A DNA stretch of 64,000 nucleotides, from IMG/VR virus record IMGVR_UViG_3300028283_000231; one strand, written 5' to 3'. A model generated the notes under the pieces. The model had not been told where the DNA came from. It saw nothing but the letters and a program-made list of their open reading frames with translations, and did no database searches. Positions 45,622-62,533 of this stretch are shown in pieces (position 1 is the stretch's first letter; every line of letters begins with the position of its first letter). The DNA comes from a virus (taxonomy: Duplodnaviria; Caudoviricetes). A program made the translations under genes and the position numbers.

Positions 45622-46162
45622 AACACAATTAAAATAATGAACACAGAAGAGATTAAACACATCTTCTCTTTACCACACGTTAAAGAAGAAGTTAAAAGAT
45701 ATATGACTGGTTTCAAAGGCGAAGCTAGAGATACAAAAGAAGCATATTTTATCTTCGCTAAATATATGAAACGCGAAGATATAACAGACGAAGAAAAGAA
45801 AATATTTAAAGATCAAATGATCGATCTTTTAAAAGGAGTCGGCGTGGTTGTACCATTCCAATTAATTCCTTTACCATTCGTGAGCACTATACTAATGATG
45901 TTAACAGAACAGGTAGCTAACGAAATGGGTATCAAGATATTACCAAGTTCTTTTTACGAAAAAGAAAAAGAAAAAGAAGAAAAAATAGAGGTATAATTTT
46001 TTTAATTCAAACAAACGACGTATCTTTGTATAACAATTAGAAATAATAGAAAGATATGATAGTAGAAGGATTTGGAATATTAATGTTAGGACTCTGTGTA
46101 GTAGCAGTAGGATTAGAAGTTAAGAATACGTTCAAATTTGGAAAAAAGTGACTTTTTTTTCA

Positions 46163-46179
46163 AAATATATAAAACAAAG
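46163..46179 (+). promoter_or_regulatory. Promoter of tRNA operon 1
   Basis: aaatatataaaacaaag is identical to 58025-58041. Confidence 0.7.
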
Positions 46180-46221
46180 ACAAAAAGATAGAATACAAAC
46201 AATATTAAAAAAATAGAAATC

Positions 46222-46317
46222 ATGTTATACACATCTAAACATAGTAAACATTTTAGTTCATCATCCAAGTGGTTTACCACATTCGGGGTTGAAACGGATT
46301 TGCTATGTGTTAGCTGA
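46222..46317 (+). CDS. Attenuator leader peptide 1 (MLYTSKHSKHFSSSSKWFTTFGVETDLLCVS)
   Basis: Manual translation; core S/K/H/F/W matches the downstream tRNAs; contains antiterminator segment ttcggggtt (46282-46290). Confidence 0.75.
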   Translation: MLYTSKHSKHFSSSSKWFTTFGVETDLLCVS

Positions 46318-46337
46318 TACAAACATAGTAATAACGG

Positions 46338-46375
46338 AAAACCCCGAACTCAAAAAGTTTGGGGTTTTTTGTTTT
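46338..46375 (+). terminator. Intrinsic terminator/attenuator before tRNA operon 1
   Basis: aaaaccccgaact-caaaa-agtttggggtttt followed by a U-rich tract. Confidence 0.88.
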
Positions 46376-46393
46376 AATAAAGTTCTTAAAAAT

Positions 46394-46464
46394 ACGGGTG
46401 TAGCACAATGGCAGTGTGACGGTCTCCAAAACCGCTGATGGGGGTTCGAATCCCTCCACCCGTG
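46394..46464 (+). tRNA. tRNA-Trp(CCA)
   Basis: Cloverleaf; anticodon arm acggt-ctCCAaa-accgc; GTTCGAATC. Confidence 0.92.
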
Positions 46465-46498
46465 CAAAGTGTTCATTGAAATATTGATTTAATTTATT

Positions 46499-46614
46499 GG
46501 GGAAGTAGCTCAGTTGGTAGAGCAACGTAAAAACGTAATTTGGCATAAATTACTAACAGCAAAACAAAACGCCTTCTAAGCCGTTGGCCACTGGTTCGAG
46601 TCCAGTCTTCCCCT
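46499..46614 (+). tRNA. tRNA-Arg(TCT) interrupted by a 43-nt insertion in the anticodon stem
   Basis: Removing 46528-46570 restores acggc-ctTCTaa-gccgt. Confidence 0.7.
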
Positions 46615-46621
46615 CTTATAT

Positions 46622-46696
46622 GGTGCTATTAGCTCAATCGGTAGAGCGCATGCCTGTGGAGCATGAGGCAATGGGATCGAAACCCATATAGCACCC
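46622..46696 (+). tRNA. tRNA-His(GTG)
   Basis: catgc-ctGTGga-gcatg; atypical T-loop GATCGAAA; C73. Confidence 0.85.
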
Positions 46697-46697
46697 T

Positions 46698-46774
46698 GTG
46701 TTTGTAGCTTAATTGGTATGAAAAGCGCAAGATTGTGACTCTTGTAGATACGGGTTCGACTCCCGCCAAACACC
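46698..46774 (+). tRNA. tRNA-His(GTG)
   Basis: caaga-ttGTGac-tcttg; C73. Confidence 0.88.
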
Positions 46775-46779
46775 CAACT

Positions 46780-46860
46780 ATGTAATGAAGTAGCTGAAAC
46801 CAGATAACGCAACTGGTCTGCCTTCCAAACTCGGAGAGAGTCCGACTCACTTCATTACAT
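46780..46860 (+). ncRNA. tRNA-like RNA with 12-bp terminal stem
   Basis: atgtaatgaagt/acttcattacat plus two internal hairpins; no canonical anticodon loop. Confidence 0.5.
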
Positions 46861-46864
46861 ATAT

Positions 46865-46936
46865 GGTCGGGTAGCTCAGGGGTAGAGCGTCAGCCTGAAG
46901 AGCTGAGCGTCGGGGGTTCAATTCCCTCTCCGACCA
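46865..46936 (+). tRNA. tRNA-Phe(GAA)
   Basis: tcagc-ctGAAga-gctga. Confidence 0.92.
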
Positions 46937-46941
46937 CACAA

Positions 46942-47014
46942 GGTTCCGTAGCTCAATTGGCAGAGCACCACACTTTTAATGTGGGGGTTATGGGTTCGAT
47001 TCCCATCGGGGCCA
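46942..47014 (+). tRNA. tRNA-Lys(TTT)
   Basis: ccaca-ctTTTaa-tgtgg. Confidence 0.93.
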
Positions 47015-47094
47015 CGAAAGCGGGAGTTCATGGTTCGAGTCCATGTGAGGGGTCGGCCGACCTTTATAGTGAAATGGTTATCATGCCCGCCATT
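47015..47094 (+). other. tRNA halves in permuted order (3' half, then 5' half)
   Basis: gcggg + T-arm + acceptor 3' strand, ggcc linker, then acceptor 5' strand + D-arm + cccgc. Confidence 0.55.
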
Positions 47095-47180
47095 GGAGAC
47101 ACCTATTGGCGCAGTTAGCTACCTCGAAAATAGTGAAGTCGATGAGAGTCGATGTGAAGGTTCAACTCCTTCTGTCTCCG
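47095..47180 (+). tRNA. tRNA-Ser(CGA), atypical D-arm
   Basis: ggagaca/tgtctcc acceptor, ctCGAaa loop, long variable arm, G73. Confidence 0.75.
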
Positions 47181-47241
47181 CAGGATTAGAGACTGTTATA
47201 ATTTCATAGTACTACCATATAAGGAAGCGTAGAAATTAAAT

Positions 47242-47326
47242 GGAAGATTGACTGAGTGGTCTATAGTGCACGCTTGGAAAGCGTGTGGGTGTAACAGCTC
47301 CACAGGTTCGAATCCTGTATCTTCCG
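47242..47326 (+). tRNA. tRNA-Ser(GGA)
   Basis: cacgc-ttGGAaa-gcgtg, long variable arm. Confidence 0.92.
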
Positions 47327-47334
47327 CAAAATAT

Positions 47335-47423
47335 GGAGAGTTGGCAGAGAGGTAATGCACCAGTTTGCTAAACTGCGGTCTGCGGTAGCACCAGCGGGGG
47401 TTCGATCCCCTCACTCTCCGCCA
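47335..47423 (+). tRNA. tRNA-Ser(GCT)
   Basis: cagt-ttGCTaa-actg, long variable arm, encoded CCA. Confidence 0.9.
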
Positions 47424-47428
47424 AAAAT

Positions 47429-47509
47429 GTGGTTGTAGCTGAGACGGTTTAGCATCGGGTTGAAGCCCCGAGATAGGACAGGACGGTGGTTCGATTCCGC
47501 CCAATCACA
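47429..47509 (+). tRNA. tRNA-Phe(GAA) with enlarged variable region
   Basis: tcggg-ttGAAgc-cccga. Confidence 0.8.
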
Positions 47510-47518
47510 CAAATAACT

Positions 47519-47605
47519 GGAGGGTCCTATGTGGCGCAGTTAGCTGTCTTGAAAACAGTGAAGTCGGCGAGAACCGGCGTGGGAGTTCGACTCTCCCATC
47601 CTCCG
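47519..47605 (+). tRNA. tRNA-Ser(TGA), atypical D-arm
   Basis: gctgt-ctTGAaa-acagt, long variable arm, G73. Confidence 0.82.
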
Positions 47606-47657
47606 CAATGGCGATGATAGTAACGCAGTTTGAAATAGAACAAATAACCTATCACAC

Positions 47658-47735
47658 GCGTCTGTAGCTCAGATGGTAGATACAAGCACCACTCTTTTAA
47701 AGTGGGGGTCGTGGGTTCGAACCCCACCAGGCGCA
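47658..47735 (+). tRNA. tRNA-Lys(TTT) with enlarged D-loop
   Basis: ccact-ctTTTaa-agtgg. Confidence 0.85.
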
Positions 47736-47751
47736 CAAAAAATTAAATGAT

Positions 47752-48483
47752 ATGAAATACTTAATAGGAATACAACCAACAGGAAAACTACATATAGGAA
47801 ACTATCTTGGATGTCTGGCAAAAGGTTTACGCCTTCAAAACGAAGGTCACGACGTCACATTCCTTATAGCAAACTATCATAGTATGACCACTGGTTCATA
47901 CACAGAAGAAACTGAAAATGAGTTAGTTAGATTGGGTTGTAAAAATATAAAGCGTCAAACACCTGAGTACACAGAGAAGTTCTTTGAATTATGTTGTAAA
48001 ATGAATTTGGGTCAACTTTTAAAGATGCCTCAATACAAAGATAAGAGAGACAAGGTGGAATATGATTTAGGATTACTTTTATATCCAGTGTTAATGACGG
48101 TAGATATAATAATCAACGATCCAGATGTGATTATTGTAGGATTAGATCAAGTGGCTCATATAGAATTAGCTAATGATATAGCAAAAAGAGTAGGAATAGA
48201 TAAACATTTTGAGTACGAACTGGGGGATATAAATAAGATAATGTCTTTGATAGATCCAACAATTAAAATGTCTAAATCATCTGGTGAAAAACACGTTCTT
48301 TATATCTTTGATGAAAACTATAAAAGTAAATTGAAGAAGGCTAATATGAATGACGAAGGATTACTTAATTTGAGAAAGATTGGTGATTTCTTTGGAATAG
48401 AAAGATGTGATTCAAATTTTGAATATAAAATGAGATTAGCTGAAGTATTAGAAAAAACCTTCCAAGAGGAAGAAGTCTTCTGA
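47752..48483 (+). CDS. trpS: Tryptophanyl-tRNA synthetase, minimised (243 aa)
   Basis: GIQPTGKLHIGNYLG (HIGH), YPVLM..DI, VGLDQVAH, KMSKS. Confidence 0.88.
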   Translation: MKYLIGIQPTGKLHIGNYLGCLAKGLRLQNEGHDVTFLIANYHSMTTGSYTEETENELVRLGCKNIKRQTPEYTEKFFELCCKMNLGQLLKMPQYKDKRDKVEYDLGLLLYPVLMTVDIIINDPDVIIVGLDQVAHIELANDIAKRVGIDKHFEYELGDINKIMSLIDPTIKMSKSSGEKHVLYIFDENYKSKLKKANMNDEGLLNLRKIGDFFGIERCDSNFEYKMRLAEVLEKTFQEEEVF

Positions 48484-48565
48484 GGTAGCTCTGGTATAGG
48501 TTCGCGCGCAGGGTCTATATTGGGAATTAGCAAAAGGAAGAGCAACTCACAAATCTTGGAAGAAT

Positions 48566-48640
48566 GGGATCATAGGTCAATTGGTAAACTAGTAGACTTT
48601 TAATCTACGGCTCCGGGTTCGACCCCCGGTGGTCCCACCA
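48566..48640 (+). tRNA. tRNA-Lys(TTT)
   Basis: gtaga-ctTTTaa-tctac; encoded CCA. Confidence 0.92.
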
Positions 48641-48645
48641 AACAC

Positions 48646-48717
48646 ACGTCTATGGTGTAATGTGCAGCACAAAGGCTTCCAAACCCTTTTGTCCGAGTTC
48701 GAATCTTGGTAGGCGTA
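48646..48717 (+). tRNA. tRNA-Trp(CCA), one anticodon-stem mismatch
   Basis: aaggc-ttCCAaa-ccctt by cloverleaf register (a TCC reading is less well paired). Confidence 0.65.
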
Positions 48718-48719
48718 CA

Positions 48720-48833
48720 AAAGTTAAGTGGCGAAACTGGTAACGCTTGGGGATAAGCTCTCTATAAAAACCTGTGATGGGTTAGTAAGTCTAAATCTTC
48801 GGATAGTATAGGTTCGAGTCCTATCTTAACTTT
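48720..48833 (+). ncRNA. Enlarged tRNA-like RNA / pseudo-tRNA
   Basis: aaagttaag/cttaacttt acceptor-like stem, D-loop tggcgaaactggtaacgc, intact T-arm, extra hairpins. Confidence 0.5.
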
Positions 48834-48838
48834 TATTT

Positions 48839-48911
48839 GGGTTCATAGGTCAATTGGTTAAACTAGTAGACTCTTAATCTACGGCTCTGGGTTCGAATCC
48901 CAGTGAACCCA
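48839..48911 (+). tRNA. tRNA-Lys(CTT)
   Basis: gtaga-ctCTTaa-tctac; near-copy of 48566-48640. Confidence 0.92.
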
Positions 48912-48916
48912 CAAAC

Positions 48917-48989
48917 GGGATGCTAGCTCAACTGGCAGAGCTGGACACTCTTAATGTTCAGGTTCGGGGTTCGAGTCCCCGGCGTCCCA
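48917..48989 (+). tRNA. tRNA-Lys(CTT)
   Basis: ggaca-ctCTTaa-tgttc. Confidence 0.9.
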
Positions 48990-50160
48990 CAGTTAGGTTT
49001 TTTTACAATTTTTACATTTTTTCAGAACCATAATTTTATATATCTTAGCACCTTCTTTGTTTGTAGAAGCCAGGAATGTTACTTTCACTGTTCCTTTTCT
49101 AGTGAAAGTCATTTTCTTACCAGTTATATCGTATGTTATTAAACATTCTTTCCCGTTTTCTTCTGCTACTATATTAAGTTCGTAATCTTCCTTTTTAATT
49201 TCTTTTATTTCGCTATATAAGTGAACAACACTAGTTTGTTCTTCTTTCCTTAATTGTTTATCTCTCGATAAGTATATAGTGAAAGGCTTCTCTATATCTA
49301 CTTTCAGATTCTGGTTGAACTTCATCCACTAATGGTAAAGGTTTAATTAATAAATCTTTAACAGATTTCCATGTCAACTTTTCTTTTAAAAAATCGTCGA
49401 AGTGTGTAATGTTTTTTAAATTTTTCATCGTCCAGATTTTTTTATTGCTATATATTGTTTTAATTTTGCAAAAATAAAACAATTAATAAGTTATATACTA
49501 TATTAGAGGTAATTAAGGATCATTTATGAAGATATTTTTAACAATTATATTATTAGTATTATCTAATATAAATTTATATTCACAAGAAGGCGTTGGTAAG
49601 TTTAAAATAAACAAATCTACTGTTGATGTAATCAAAGACGTAGAAAGTGAAATTGGTAAAACTTACGATATTACCAACGTCTTGGAGTTTTATAACAATC
49701 ATTATATCAATGGTGATTTGAAATTCCAAGAGATAATTATGGACACTACTACTAATTGTAAAAATTCTAGAATATTTTATATATCAGAATACACTATATC
49801 TAATATCAAATTAAAGGAAATTTATTTAGTTTTCTTTAAAGACTTGCTTGTAGAATTCAGATGTGATAAGAGTAAAGAACTAGATATATTATTTTCTAGA
49901 AAATATGGAAGACCTTACGTGTTTCAGAAATTATCACCAGATATGGTTTCCAACACTTTAAAGTACGACGAACATATGACCAAATTTGTTTGGAGGGAAA
50001 GTAATATAACTACTATATCATTTGAAAAGAAACAGGTATTTGACGGTATTGTTAGAGACGCTGGATCATATTTTATCATATATGACGTGACTTACAGAAA
50101 AATTATTGAAGATTGTGATATTTTTAACGATAATTTTGAAAATAAAATAATTTATTAACT

Positions 50161-57459: not shown

Positions 57460-58024
57460 TATTCTAAATCCAAACCTATGAAAAAATTTCTGTTTTATAA
57501 GAAAAATTTAAATACAGGAAGAGTAAGGAAACATCCATTTTTCACAGTAGAATGTGAAAATATAGATGAAGCAAAGAAAGCTTTTGAAGCTAAAAATGAA
57601 TTAGTGTTTAAAGAAACTGAAACATATATTATAAAATGAACAAGAATACAGCTAATAAATTGTGGATGGATTTATATTTTGGTATAAGTCCTTTGTGTTT
57701 CTCCTTATCAAAAGATGGTAATGATTACGCAATCATCTTCAAACCAACAAAAGAAAAAGTACTCACTTTCGAAGAAGGAGTTAATTTGGCAACTAAACAC
57801 AATCTTATAAAAGTAAAGAAATGATAGAAAAAAGATTTGATTTTATTCTCGAAGATCTCAATGAGATCGAATCCACTCTTCAAAAGATAGGAGTTGATAC
57901 AGAGAACATTATGACGGAAGGCGGTGATTTCTTAATCACTTTATTCAATAACATTAGAATAGCTTGTGATCTTAAAGACGACGAACCAGATAACTGGTAA
58001 TGGAAAAAAGTGATATTTTTGATT

Positions 58025-58041
58025 AAATATATAAAACAAAG
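58025..58041 (+). promoter_or_regulatory. Promoter of tRNA-Leu operon
   Basis: Identical 17-mer to 46163-46179. Confidence 0.7.
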
Positions 58042-58067
58042 TAATAATAATACAATATATAAAACAT

Positions 58068-58136
58068 ATGAATAACATTCTACATATTAACCTTCTGAAC
58101 AGTTTATGCCTCTTGGGTATAAAGTTGATTGGGTGA
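58068..58136 (+). CDS. Attenuator leader peptide 2 (MNNILHINLLNSLCLLGIKLIG)
   Basis: 7 of 22 codons are Leu: CTA, CTT, CTG, TTA, CTC, TTG, TTG; antiterminator segment tgattgggt (58126-58134) overlaps the stop codon. Confidence 0.85.
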   Translation: MNNILHINLLNSLCLLGIKLIG

Positions 58137-58172
58137 AGTATGTGTGGATGTCTCAAAAGGAGCTTCGAACTC

Positions 58173-58206
58173 AAACCCAATCAGCAATGATTGGGTTTTT
58201 TGTTTT
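58173..58206 (+). terminator. Intrinsic terminator/attenuator before tRNA-Leu operon
   Basis: aaacccaatca-gcaa-tgattgggttt plus U-tract. Confidence 0.9.
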
Positions 58207-58234
58207 TATGTTCTTTAACATTTTGAAATAATAA

Positions 58235-58375
58235 AGATTGCTTACAGCAAACAAAACGGCTCCCGCCAAAAATTGGGAGAGTAGTGTAAGGGTAACACAC
58301 CATTGGACGCAGAGAAAAAGCAAAGATGGAGAATGTTGGTTCGAGTCCAACCTTATTTTAAAAAGGCAATCTGTT
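58235..58375 (+). ncRNA. ACAGCAA-motif stem enclosing a degenerate tRNA
   Basis: agattgctt/aggcaatct stem, ACAGCAA, internal D-arm-like and T-arm (gttggttcgagtccaac) elements. Confidence 0.5.
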
Positions 58376-58551: not shown

Positions 58552-58670
58552 ATGAAGTATGACGAAGAGGTAGACGTATTACCCGCCAAGGGTAAACATG
58601 GGAAAGACCGAAGTACAAGGGCTAACCGCTGATAAATCAGTCTTATAGGTTCGAATCCTATTACTTCATT
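58552..58670 (+). ncRNA. Enlarged tRNA-like RNA
   Basis: atgaagt/acttcat acceptor, intact T-arm, non-canonical anticodon loop, about 45 nt of extra structure. Confidence 0.5.
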
Positions 58671-58675
58671 TACAA

Positions 58676-58972: not shown

Positions 58973-59743
58973 ATGGAACAATTCATTTACACTTTAACAG
59001 ATCCAGAAGACGGTGATATAAAATATATTGGAAAAACTAACAATATTGAAAAAAGAATTAAAAGACATTATTCTGATTATTATATTCAGTTGGAACCTTG
59101 GACAAAAAAGAATAAATGGTTAAAATATTTAAAAAATAAAAAATTGGTTCCGATTATAGAAATATTGGATATTGGTGATGATAATAATATCAATAATTTA
59201 GAAAAATATTGGATATGCCAATTTAAAGTTTGGGGATTCAAGTTAAAGAATCAGACTGATGGAGGTGATGGAGTATCTTGGTTAGGTAAAAAACACAGTG
59301 ATGAAAGTAAAAGATTGATGAAAATATCTAACACTAGAAAAAGGTCAATAATAATGTATGATTTAAATTTAAATCCAATAATAAAATTTATTAGCATAAG
59401 AGGGGCTGAGAGAGAAACTGGAATATTTAGACAACAAATAAAATTTAGTTGCGATTTAAAAGGTAGTGCCGGCGGTTGTTATTTTAGATATGATGAAAAC
59501 AATTCGAATATTCTTGAAGATAAAAACTGGAGAGATTATATAAATATAAGAAATTATGGAAAATTTGATAAAAATCTAGATAAAGAATATTTTGAAACAG
59601 TTGTTAAAAAATCAAAATCATACCGTGATGTAGTTGATAATTTGAATGTTAATTATGATAGTAAAGTGAAACACCATGTTTATAGAATCATAAAAAAATA
59701 CAATATAAATATAGATCATTTCACAAGAAAGGAAAAGAAATGA
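58973..59743 (+). CDS. GIY-YIG homing endonuclease
   Basis: FIYTLTDP..IKYIGKT; LKNQTDGGDG; own ATATATA promoter. Confidence 0.88.
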   Translation: MEQFIYTLTDPEDGDIKYIGKTNNIEKRIKRHYSDYYIQLEPWTKKNKWLKYLKNKKLVPIIEILDIGDDNNINNLEKYWICQFKVWGFKLKNQTDGGDGVSWLGKKHSDESKRLMKISNTRKRSIIMYDLNLNPIIKFISIRGAERETGIFRQQIKFSCDLKGSAGGCYFRYDENNSNILEDKNWRDYINIRNYGKFDKNLDKEYFETVVKKSKSYRDVVDNLNVNYDSKVKHHVYRIIKKYNINIDHFTRKEKK

Positions 59744-61266
59744 AGAAAAAAATGTTTGTGGTTCCGATGATACCATACCCTAGCGGTAATATCCATATGG
59801 GTCATATGAGAAATTACACCATATCTGACGCTATAGCCAGGTACTGGAGAAATAAAGGATACGAAGTTTGCCACCCTATTGGATGGGATTCCTTTGGTAT
59901 GCCAGCAGAAAACGCAGCTATCAAAAATAACATTCATCCTAAAGAATGGACAGATGCCAATATTGATAACATGCGAAACCAAATGAAAAGAATGAATATG
60001 TCTTTTGATTGGGACAAAGAAATATCTACATGTGAAGTTGATTACTGGCAACACGAACAAAGATTCTTTATAGACGCTTGGAAAGCAGGGTTCATTGAGA
60101 AGAAAATTGGCATAGTAAACTGGGACCCAGTGGATCAAACAGTTATGGCATCAAATCAAGTTATCGATGGAAAGGGTTGGAGATCAGGAGCTAAGATTGA
60201 GAAGAAAGAGATGGTTCAATATTATTTCAAAACTACTATGTTTGCTGATGAGATGTATGAATCAATAAAAGATATTGAGAATGATTGGCCCGAAATCATA
60301 ACAAAACAACAAAAACAATTTATTAAAAACGGTATTAGGGAAGGAGACGAAGTAAGACCTTTCGCAGATTGGTGTATTTCAAGACAAAGATTTTGGGGAA
60401 CTCCGATTCCTATGATTAATTGTCCAAAATGTGGCACTGTTCCAAACGAACAAATACCAGTTATTGCTCCACATGACGTAGAATTTAACGGTAAAGGTAA
60501 TCCTATCGATAATCATCCAACTTGGAAATATATTAAATGTCCAGTTTGTGGCAGTGACGCTGAAAAAGAAACAGATACTATGGACACATTCGTACAATCA
60601 AGCTGGTACTTCATTCGTTACATATCAGACTTTAATGGTGTTAGATTTGATTGGGATAAGATAAAACATTGGTTTCCAATTGATTATTATATTGGTGGAG
60701 CTGAGCACGCTACTGGTCATATGATTTATGCCAGATTTTTCTGGAGGATTTTTAAGAAGATGGGATATATTCCAGAGGATGCTCCCACTGAACCTTTTGG
60801 TAAGGTTATTACTCAGGGTATGGTGAAGAAGGATGGTAAGAAAATGTCTAAAAATTTTGGTAACGGGGTATCTCCAGATGAAATGGTGGAGAAGTATGGT
60901 AGTGATGTAATAAGAATGTATATTATGTTTGCTGGTCCTCCTGATCAAGATTTTGAGTGGATTGATGATAATATATCTGGTTGTAATAGATTTTTCAAGA
61001 AATTCAAGAATGGGTTTGAAAGAACTAAAGGGATGGTTTATGTAGAGAATAAGAAGAATGAAGATTGGGCGAAGAATAGAATAGAAGTGATGAAACAGAG
61101 AACTAAAGATGTTTACGAAAGGACATATAAGTTTAATACTATTGTATCTACGGCGATGGAAACTTATAACGCCATATCGAAGACAACAGATATAAACATT
61201 TGGAGGAATGGTTATGATGCTATTATGGACGCGATGGAGCCAATTGCACCGGGATTCAGAACGTAA
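59740..61266 (+). CDS. leuS: Leucyl-tRNA synthetase lacking CP1 editing, Leu-specific and C-terminal domains (508 aa)
   Basis: PYPSGNIHMGH, GWDSFGMPAENAA, DWCISRQRFWGTPIP, TMDTFVQSSWY, YIGGAEHA, KMSK. Confidence 0.92.
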   Translation: MKKKMFVVPMIPYPSGNIHMGHMRNYTISDAIARYWRNKGYEVCHPIGWDSFGMPAENAAIKNNIHPKEWTDANIDNMRNQMKRMNMSFDWDKEISTCEVDYWQHEQRFFIDAWKAGFIEKKIGIVNWDPVDQTVMASNQVIDGKGWRSGAKIEKKEMVQYYFKTTMFADEMYESIKDIENDWPEIITKQQKQFIKNGIREGDEVRPFADWCISRQRFWGTPIPMINCPKCGTVPNEQIPVIAPHDVEFNGKGNPIDNHPTWKYIKCPVCGSDAEKETDTMDTFVQSSWYFIRYISDFNGVRFDWDKIKHWFPIDYYIGGAEHATGHMIYARFFWRIFKKMGYIPEDAPTEPFGKVITQGMVKKDGKKMSKNFGNGVSPDEMVEKYGSDVIRMYIMFAGPPDQDFEWIDDNISGCNRFFKKFKNGFERTKGMVYVENKKNEDWAKNRIEVMKQRTKDVYERTYKFNTIVSTAMETYNAISKTTDINIWRNGYDAIMDAMEPIAPGFRT

Positions 61267-61913: not shown

Positions 61914-62384
61914 ATGAGAAAAGATATATTAGAGAAAAAAGATCAAATTGTAAAATGGATAGAAGATAATCAATCTAAGGCTTTTATATGTAGAGAAATA
62001 GAATGTAAACCCTTAACATTAGATCTTTATTTGAAGAAATGGAAAATAGAATATTCTGGTAATAAAGGATTAAAGGGTAAAAAAATAGCACATAATAGGT
62101 CACACGTTTCTAATTATTTGATTAAAGGTTCTTTAATTACAAGTTATAAGTTAAAGAAAAGACTAATTAGGGATGGGGTAAAAGAAAAAAAATGTGAAGT
62201 TTGTAGGTTAACTGAATGGAATAATAAAGAAATTCCATTGGAAGTACATCATATTGATGGTGATAGTTTTAATAATGAGTTAACAAATATAATGTTATTG
62301 TGTCCTAATTGTCACGCGCAGACTGATACTTATAGAGGATTGAACAAACATATATATAAAAATAGGAAAAAAGACATCAAATAA
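61914..62384 (+). CDS. HNH endonuclease
   Basis: CEVC...LEVHHIDGD..NN...N..LLCPNCH. Confidence 0.88.
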   Translation: MRKDILEKKDQIVKWIEDNQSKAFICREIECKPLTLDLYLKKWKIEYSGNKGLKGKKIAHNRSHVSNYLIKGSLITSYKLKKRLIRDGVKEKKCEVCRLTEWNNKEIPLEVHHIDGDSFNNELTNIMLLCPNCHAQTDTYRGLNKHIYKNRKKDIK

Positions 62385-62436
62385 TTTTTTTAATATATAA
62401 AAAAGTCGTAATTTTGACGTAGTTCTTTGAAGATAT

Positions 62437-62520
62437 GCCGATGTGTTGTAATAGGTAGCCAAGACAGACTTAAAATCTGTTGAGAGTAATCTCGTGCCGG
62501 TTCGAGTCCGGCCATCGGTA
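62437..62520 (+). tRNA. tRNA-Leu(TAA), canonical long arm
   Basis: acaga-ctTAAaa-tctgt. Confidence 0.92.
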
Positions 62521-62533
62521 CAGTAAGGCGTAC

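Follow-up and report, generated by a model that had tools for sequence, protein, structure and literature searches.

A tRNA operon with a short leader region

The DNA analysed here, 64,000 nucleotides (nt) from the virus record IMGVR_UViG_3300028283_000231 (Caudoviricetes) and called the window throughout, carries an operon of 15 intact tRNA genes and a gene for a protein resembling tryptophanyl-tRNA synthetase (TrpRS). In front of this operon lies a leader region (46143-46374) with a promoter-like motif, a small open reading frame (ORF) and a predicted terminator. We propose that the leader region is an attenuator in which a translating ribosome would sense the supply of the same tRNAs that are encoded downstream.

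The window DNA is present in lake-water metagenomes, and its source is a giant phage. Its region is about 88% identical to LR756501.1, the 735-kb genome of an uncultured huge phage in the Mahaphage clade, whose predicted hosts are Bacteroidetes (PMC7162821). LR756501 and a second genome, LR756502 (642 kb; TrpRS gene 71.5% identical in DNA), served as whole-genome proxies for the window phage. tRNA genes were called by ARAGORN at default and relaxed thresholds; in LR756501 all of them were located and the DNA 5' of each cluster was read. The leader region has the following parts:

46143-46179 (+): promoter-like motif, GGAAAAAAGTGA, a T-rich spacer and AAATATATAAAACAAAG; recognized as a 17-mer repeat and as a motif type in LR756501
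46222-46317 (+): leader ORF, 31 codons and TGA, MLYTSKHSKHFSSSSKWFTTFGVETDLLCVS; from the ORF listing, 99% conserved in LR756501
46232-46248 (+): segment 1, inside the control codons, pairs with 46299-46316 (anti-antiterminator stem); by folding
46234-46275 (+): control codons 5-18, SKHSKHFSSSSKWF; the sole 14-residue F/H/K/S/W run in the window
46257-46293 (+): local hairpin, 46257-46272 with 46277-46293, sequesters the antiterminator strand; by folding
46282-46290 (+): antiterminator 5' strand, codons F21-V23, complement of 46340-46348; by duplex energy and co-variation in 17 homologous leaders
46299-46316 (+): segment 2, partner of segment 1, with an alternative pairing to 46320-46333; by folding
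46334-46374 (+): predicted intrinsic terminator, with stem, CAAAA loop and T run; by folding

The minimum-energy fold combines the competing stem between segments 1 and 2 (16 pairs, bulged), the local hairpin and the terminator, whose helix joins 46334-46350 to 46356-46372 around a core arm at 46340-46348, with the T run 3' of it; the whole leader is more stable than dinucleotide shuffles (z = -5.0). The antiterminator (46282-46290 with 46340-46348) would have nine perfect pairs at -15.3 kcal/mol, versus -6.0 +/- 2.1 kcal/mol in shuffles (z = -4.3). Because segment 1 lies within the control codons, a ribosome stalled there would melt the competing stem. The ORF is also better conserved (99%) than its flanks (about 88-93%) in LR756501. 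Both the promoter motif and the terminator at this site escaped a consensus promoter and terminator scan, the terminator probably because its stem extends into the T tract, and we relied on folding instead.

The first gene, tRNA-Trp, starts 23 nt past the T run, and in 11 leaders the terminator is separated from the first tRNA by 2-26 nt. Such gaps have no space for a separate promoter, so the tRNAs of these operons are producible only by read-through. In several operons the motif GTTCTT(T)GA(A/C)/GTTCTTAAA lies in the spacer that joins the terminator to the first tRNA, or precedes a lone tRNA (46380-46390, 58208-58218 and 62424-62434 in the window, with equivalents in L002, L003 and L007); it may act in processing or as an additional promoter element.

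The 17-mer at 46163-46179 recurs identically at 58025-58041, before a tRNA-Leu operon in the same window, and the upstream GGAAAAAAGTGA is common to both sites. It is not sigma-70-like. In LR756501 the same motif type precedes all five attenuators and also some protein genes, and it appears to be a general phage promoter type. We rejected the idea that it is specific to tRNA operons, as looser versions also precede protein genes.

A preliminary description of the locus had already placed here the 17-nt promoter common with the Leu operon, the 31-codon ORF, a terminator at 46338-46368 (the fold gives a hairpin at 46334-46372 and a T run), the perfect complement between 46282-46290 and 46340-46348, and a competing stem of about 13 base pairs (bp) between 46236-46248 and 46299-46312 (the fold extends it to 46232-46248 and 46299-46316). 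Each of these elements was recovered, and all its coordinates were right to within a few bases.

The leader codons match the downstream anticodons

Downstream of the terminator, the operon consists of the following genes:

46394-47015 (+): tRNA-Trp, an interrupted tRNA-like gene (46499-46615), tRNA-His, tRNA-His, a stem-enclosed element, tRNA-Phe and tRNA-Lys-TTT; tRNA calls
47095-47736 (+): tRNA-Ser CGA, Ser GGA, Ser GCT, Phe, Ser TGA and Lys-TTT; tRNA calls
47752-48483 (+): TrpRS-like protein, catalytic domain only, 243 amino acids; PF00579, E 5e-35
48566-48990 (+): tRNA-Lys TTT, Trp, an interrupted tRNA-like gene (48721-48833) and Lys CTT twice, to the operon end; tRNA calls

The 15 intact tRNAs are thus Ser x4 (CGA, GGA, GCT, TGA), Lys x5 (TTT x3, CTT x2), His x2, Phe x2 and Trp x2, with Ser-CGA (47095-47181) detected only at the relaxed ARAGORN threshold. 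The top NCBIfam model for the TrpRS-like protein is trpS (profile positions 7-218 of 328), and it scores below the trpS cut-off because the C-terminal domain is missing.

Residues 5-18 of the leader peptide (SKHSKHFSSSSKWF) are S, K, H, F and W exclusively, the five amino acids of these tRNAs. This 14-residue run is unique: the runner-up measures 7 among the 367 short ORFs of the window and 9 in a six-frame translation of all 64 kb, and F, H, K, S and W make up 24% (0.24) of residues in the long ORFs of the window. A chance origin of the run is excluded. At the level of codons, 16 of 16 in-set leader codons are readable by operon anticodons, and all eight anticodons called at the default threshold have one or more leader codons that probe them; for the ninth, Ser-CGA, the leader holds no TCG codon. 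The Ser codons are TCT, AGT, TCA and TCC in the core and AGC at residue 31, outside the core, and both Lys codons (AAA, AAG) occur.

The preliminary description had named the same pure core, the same list of intact tRNAs with TrpRS, and the use of five of the six Ser codons and both Lys codons, all of which hold. It had also counted one unmatched tRNA, an interrupted Arg. That such genes are interrupted and unmatched stood; the count did not, as there are two in the operon (46499-46615 and 48721-48833), and ARAGORN wavers over their identity: the first is called as Arg-TCT or with a CTA anticodon, the second with CTA or as Leu-CAA. One of the two is probably Arg-TCT. These genes and a further one at 58240-58360 contain inserts of about 35-45 nt with an ACAGCAA motif, which are too short to be group I introns. 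Stem-enclosed elements of about 10-12 bp (aatgaagt...acttcatt) also lie between tRNA genes of both operons (46778-46860 and 58553-58672); the second holds a T-arm-like GGTTCGAATCC, and neither is called as a tRNA.

Leader composition follows tRNA content across relatives

In LR756501, each of the five large tRNA operons is headed by a promoter of the same type, then a short ORF, then a terminator, and the core of each ORF matches the tRNAs of its operon:

7 Leu among 21 residues: tRNAs for Leu
S/K/H/F/W: tRNAs for Ser, Lys, His, Phe and Trp
YNDYCIND: tRNAs for Ile, Cys, Asp, Asn and Tyr
IINMIQEQMQQIQ (M/Q/E/I(ATA)): tRNAs for Met, Gln, Ile(TAT) and Glu
TPAPAVAFRRGTGTGTGTCVPAG (T/P/A/V/R/G): tRNAs for Arg, Thr, Val, Ala, Gly and Pro

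Jointly, these five leader sets span all 20 amino acids. LR756502 groups its tRNAs in other ways, and its six leaders follow (K/H/F; S/R; E/Y; I(ATA)/G/A; N/L/T/V/I/R; Q/D/P). Even the Ile codon in the leader tracks the anticodon, with ATA accompanying tRNA-Ile(TAT) and ATT accompanying GAT.

To score these matches, each leader was compared with each operon of its own genome and the pairings were permuted. The 11 leader and operon pairs of LR756501 and LR756502 match only in the true pairing, each leader scoring highest with its own operon, and the true pairing ranks first of 120 permutations in one genome and first of 720 in the other. We also applied a leader finder that is ignorant of composition, its sole requirements being a tRNA preceded by a terminator and a short ORF next to it, to IMG/VR loci retrieved via the TrpRS protein. 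It returned, among relatives, leaders such as these:

NHIHKHQIWH: tRNAs for Trp, His and His
ITRIIRIRRR: tRNAs for Ile and Arg
K-rich leaders: tRNAs for Lys only
SSSRSS-type leader: tRNAs for Ser and Arg
RSWSWRRSSSSSR: tRNAs for Ser, Arg and Trp
a leader with ten amino acids: a ten-amino-acid operon

In the pooled set of 23 non-redundant leaders, the window leader and 22 others, the leader set equals the tRNA set, and the observed score exceeds that of all 200,000 shuffles. The expectation in the preliminary description that composition would follow tRNA content across relatives thus receives a clear yes.

A pattern search for K/H/F/W leaders extended this picture. True leaders accounted for 16 of 19 matches in IMG/VR and 52 of 80 in metagenome contigs (about 35 distinct peptides in the latter), and for none of 22 in bacterial genomes, where the chance matches had no tRNAs. 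Wherever tRNAs were called 3' of a leader of this type, they included Phe, His, Lys or Trp. Ser-rich versions, like that of the window, have Ser tRNAs inside the operon, and in 8 of the 11 loci with Ser-poor versions the Ser tRNAs have an S/R leader of their own. The FSSSS of the window core is SSFSS in a close relative (L010), a permutation within the set that is expected if composition, not sequence, is selected.

Predicted RNA switch and co-variation of its arms

To model the effect of a ribosome, we blocked the 26 nt that it occupies and refolded the leader at equilibrium. In the window leader the terminator has a probability of 0.95 without a ribosome, falls to 0.04-0.09 for several A-site positions among codons 12-17 (0.04-0.52 over the stretch as a whole) and is back at 0.95 from codon 19 onward. 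In this model the switch responds solely to stalls at codons 10-17, and the local hairpin 46257-46293 is melted with the A site at codons 11-17. In silico, the window leader behaves like a textbook attenuator.

A second model, a co-transcriptional approximation and not a measurement, ended the transcript before the 3' arm of the terminator to mimic the moment of decision. In most leaders, as long as the ribosome occupies the control codons, the 5' arm here stays bound to a segment from the last third of the ORF; once the ribosome enters that segment, the arm is released. Complementarity between segment and arm exceeds that in shuffles (mean z of -2.0 over the 23 leaders).

In 17 homologous K/H/F/W leaders the antiterminator and the terminator arm change together, as in the pairs TTCGGGGTT/AACCCCGAA, ATCGGGGTT/AACCCCGAT, GAACTTGG/CCAAGTTC and GTTCGG..ACT/AGTCCGAAC. 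When cognate and non-cognate duplex energies were compared, cognate pairings were better, with 22 of 40,320 permutations equally good.

A ribosome-mediated attenuator as the best explanation

We conclude, with a probability of roughly 0.85, that the leader region is a ribosome-mediated (leader-peptide) transcription attenuator of the trp/his/ilv type that controls the phage tRNA operon, and that the phage probably makes the five tRNA families only when ribosomes run short of them. Transcription would begin at the phage promoter motif, and a ribosome would translate the 31-codon leader just behind the polymerase. With plentiful Ser, Lys, His, Phe and Trp aminoacyl-tRNAs, the ribosome would reach codons 19-31 and cover 46282-46290, so that the terminator would form and transcription would end 23 nt before tRNA-Trp. 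Slow decoding of any control codon would instead stall the ribosome within codons 5-17 and melt the two helices that hide 46282-46290; the freed strand could then pair with 46340-46348 before the 3' arm of the terminator exists, and the polymerase would continue into the 15 tRNA genes and the TrpRS-like gene.

What the leader would sense is how fast the A site is filled, a product of tRNA abundance and charging. The operon yields the very tRNAs under test, so the circuit would form a negative feedback in which tRNA supply follows decoding demand. In vivo, the leader may respond to a shortage of any of the five families as a true OR gate, and the operon may serve as a backup. Candidate natural triggers include a mismatch in host codon usage, decay of host tRNAs after shut-off and cleavage by host tRNA-targeting defences (PMC10264068, PMC11464382).

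Several observations weigh against this reading. At equilibrium, the terminator of most other leaders persists wherever the ribosome is placed, and the switch is seen only in the co-transcriptional approximation. That approximation forms the antiterminator also without a ribosome, where the equilibrium model differs, which leaves the untranslated state ambiguous. Whole-peptide binomial enrichment is weak for some leaders (E/Y; I/G/A) because the N- and C-terminal parts dilute it, and pairing permutations were used for this reason. LR756501 is without window positions 47241-47657 (Ser GGA, Ser GCT, Phe and Ser TGA), yet has the identical Ser-rich core; the loss of these four tRNAs may be a recent indel. 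The two interrupted tRNA-like genes of the operon, if functional, have no leader counterpart. Nor do the singleton tRNAs of LR756501 and its suppressor-type tRNA(CTA) pair have leaders, as is expected of tRNAs that cannot be probed by sense codons. Three lake metatranscriptomes hold sparse, low-depth contigs of the region, none covering 46008-46388, with DNA carry-over possible.

Three other explanations were weighed. In the first, which we consider very unlikely, the translated leader senses the same codons and the output is something other than intrinsic termination, such as Rho-type polarity or the processing or stability of the tRNA precursor. The hairpin and T run are indeed only a predicted terminator for the relevant polymerase, and the equilibrium switch is weak in some leaders. 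Against this stand the hairpin and T run 3' of every leader examined (with one stem mismatch allowed for the Y/N/D/C/I leader), the complementary segment that most leaders carry in the last third of the ORF, and the fact that, among homologous K/H/F/W leaders, this segment co-varies with the arm of the hairpin.

A still less likely explanation keeps the same hardware and makes the aminoacyl-tRNA synthetase the target that matters (TrpRS here, a class I enzyme in the Leu operon). Amino-acid starvation would be the signal and the tRNAs would only be carried along, an arrangement resembling that of E. coli pheST, where control by a leader-peptide attenuator is established. Both window operons do carry a synthetase-like gene. 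However, only one of the 14 control codons is Trp, and composition tracks the whole tRNA set, shifting when tRNAs such as Ser move between operons. In most of the matched operons that were inspected, the tRNA run lacks a synthetase, and tRNA-matched leaders in genomes without an operon-borne synthetase are already seen in part.

Least probable of all is an absence of regulation, with a fortuitous ORF or unrelated micro-gene and a leaky constitutive terminator or insulator: short ORFs are many in AT-rich phage DNA (367 in the window) and the simple scan did not call the terminator, but the match in composition and codons has no equal elsewhere in the window, recurs in 23 distinct leaders in the correct pairing only and follows tRNA content across relatives, and the leader is more conserved than its flanks.

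The sister Leu operon and other cargo

The Leu operon of the window has an attenuator-like leader of its own, identified by folding and codon match:

58005-58201 (+): Leu-operon attenuator with the same promoter motif, leader 58068-58136 (MNNILHINLLNSLCLLGIKLIG), antiterminator 58125-58135 and terminator 58173-58201

Its seven Leu codons include all six Leu synonyms (P = 0.0065 under phage codon usage). The operon also carries a class I (I/L/M/V-type) synthetase-like gene of 508 amino acids (59740-61266). Genes for GIY-YIG and HNH homing endonucleases are embedded in tRNA operons (58973-59743 and 61914-62384 in the window; 17181-18482 in L001), and 1.3 kb of other DNA replaces the Ser-GGA, Ser-GCT, Phe and Ser-TGA genes of the window in LR756501; together these suggest endonuclease-driven turnover of tRNA content.

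A homologue of the ribosomal protein bL12 (L7/L12; PF00542 and PF16320) lies in LR756501 just past the window end (L001 35394-35765). Being placed between the Y/N/D/C/I attenuator and its tRNAs, it would be co-regulated with them. A lone tRNA-Leu(TAA) (62368-62521) stands directly 3' of a promoter-like motif, with neither leader nor terminator, and its counterpart in LR756501 has a 205-nt insertion in the anticodon loop. The two adjacent CTA-anticodon (amber-suppressor type) tRNAs of LR756501 (690585-690737; L005 3586-3739), which have no leader ORF, are relevant to possible stop-codon recoding in its phage group.

Implications

The reason for tRNA genes in phages is a decades-old question, the main ideas being codon compensation and counter-defence against tRNA-targeting immunity. 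If the attenuator operates as proposed, a sensor that monitors, one codon at a time, precisely those tRNAs under its control would make phage tRNA supply a regulated, demand-driven quantity. The leader would also be an experimental handle, reporting which decoding shortages the phage expects, and such leaders are compact natural parts that could serve as reporters of isoacceptor-specific decoding capacity.

More tentatively, and with somewhat less than even confidence, we envision that huge Bacteroidetes-type phages may possess a complete closed-loop tRNA supply, in which a few codon-matched sensors covering all 20 amino acids each switch on the matching tRNAs, with synthetase-like and even bL12 genes, only when the host tRNAs of that group fail; the leaders would then be inducible counter-defence sensors and not mere dosage control. 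Such failure could be triggered by host anticodon nucleases, by Schlafen- or PARIS-type tRNA cleavage or by phage-induced host shut-off.

Comparison with known systems

Like known phage tRNA clusters, these operons are phage-borne arrays that supplement or replace host tRNAs; we know of no report of a demand-sensing leader in such clusters. Published work has treated them as codon compensation or counter-defence, as for mycobacteriophage tRNAs (PMC10264068) and the T5 tRNA that acts against PARIS (PMC11464382). Full-text literature searches returned no description of attenuator-controlled tRNA operons, phage or otherwise, and the words attenuat- and leader are absent from the paper on LR756501 and LR756502 (PMC7162821).

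T-box riboswitches likewise make the expression of translation-related genes depend on the state of particular tRNAs, by way of a choice between terminator and antiterminator. They bind uncharged tRNA directly, without translation and for one codon, whereas the sensor in the phage leader would be the ribosome. No T-box or other riboswitch matched in the window in Rfam searches by gathering threshold or by E-value, and at gathering thresholds the window returned tRNAs only. The E. coli pheST attenuator, with its pheM leader, resembles the phage element in governing a component of the translation apparatus and not a biosynthetic pathway. Unlike pheM, which senses one amino acid and controls a synthetase, the phage leader follows the tRNA set in its composition and gives only a small share to Trp, the amino acid of the operon's synthetase.

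The closest parallels are the leader-peptide attenuators of enterobacteria, which include trpL, hisL, pheL and leuL as well as the multivalent thrL (Thr/Ile) and ilvL of ilvGMEDA (Ile/Val/Leu). The phage leader shares with them a short leader with clustered control codons, mutually exclusive antiterminator and terminator, an upstream stem inside the control codons, a ribosome whose position would decide termination and the use of one leader to sense several amino acids. The Rfam Thr_leader model (RF00506) aligns to 46300-46373 of the window at 34.9 bits (E 4.5e-4), below its gathering cut-off of 55, and the phage leaders are without sequence homology to the enterobacterial ones. They differ also in what they control, which is tRNAs and a synthetase-like gene in place of biosynthetic enzymes, so that the output would feed back directly on the sensed quantity. 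Each phage leader would sense five to ten amino acids and spreads synonymous codons so as to probe nearly every isoacceptor, and the element is phage-encoded and one of a set that spans all 20 amino acids.

Overall, the proposed mechanism is classical; its target class, the breadth of its sensing and its viral setting are new. It would extend attenuation to the RNA genes of the translation apparatus, to as many as ten amino acids per sensor and to viruses, and probably also to Bacteroidetes-type hosts with their unusual ribosome binding sites.

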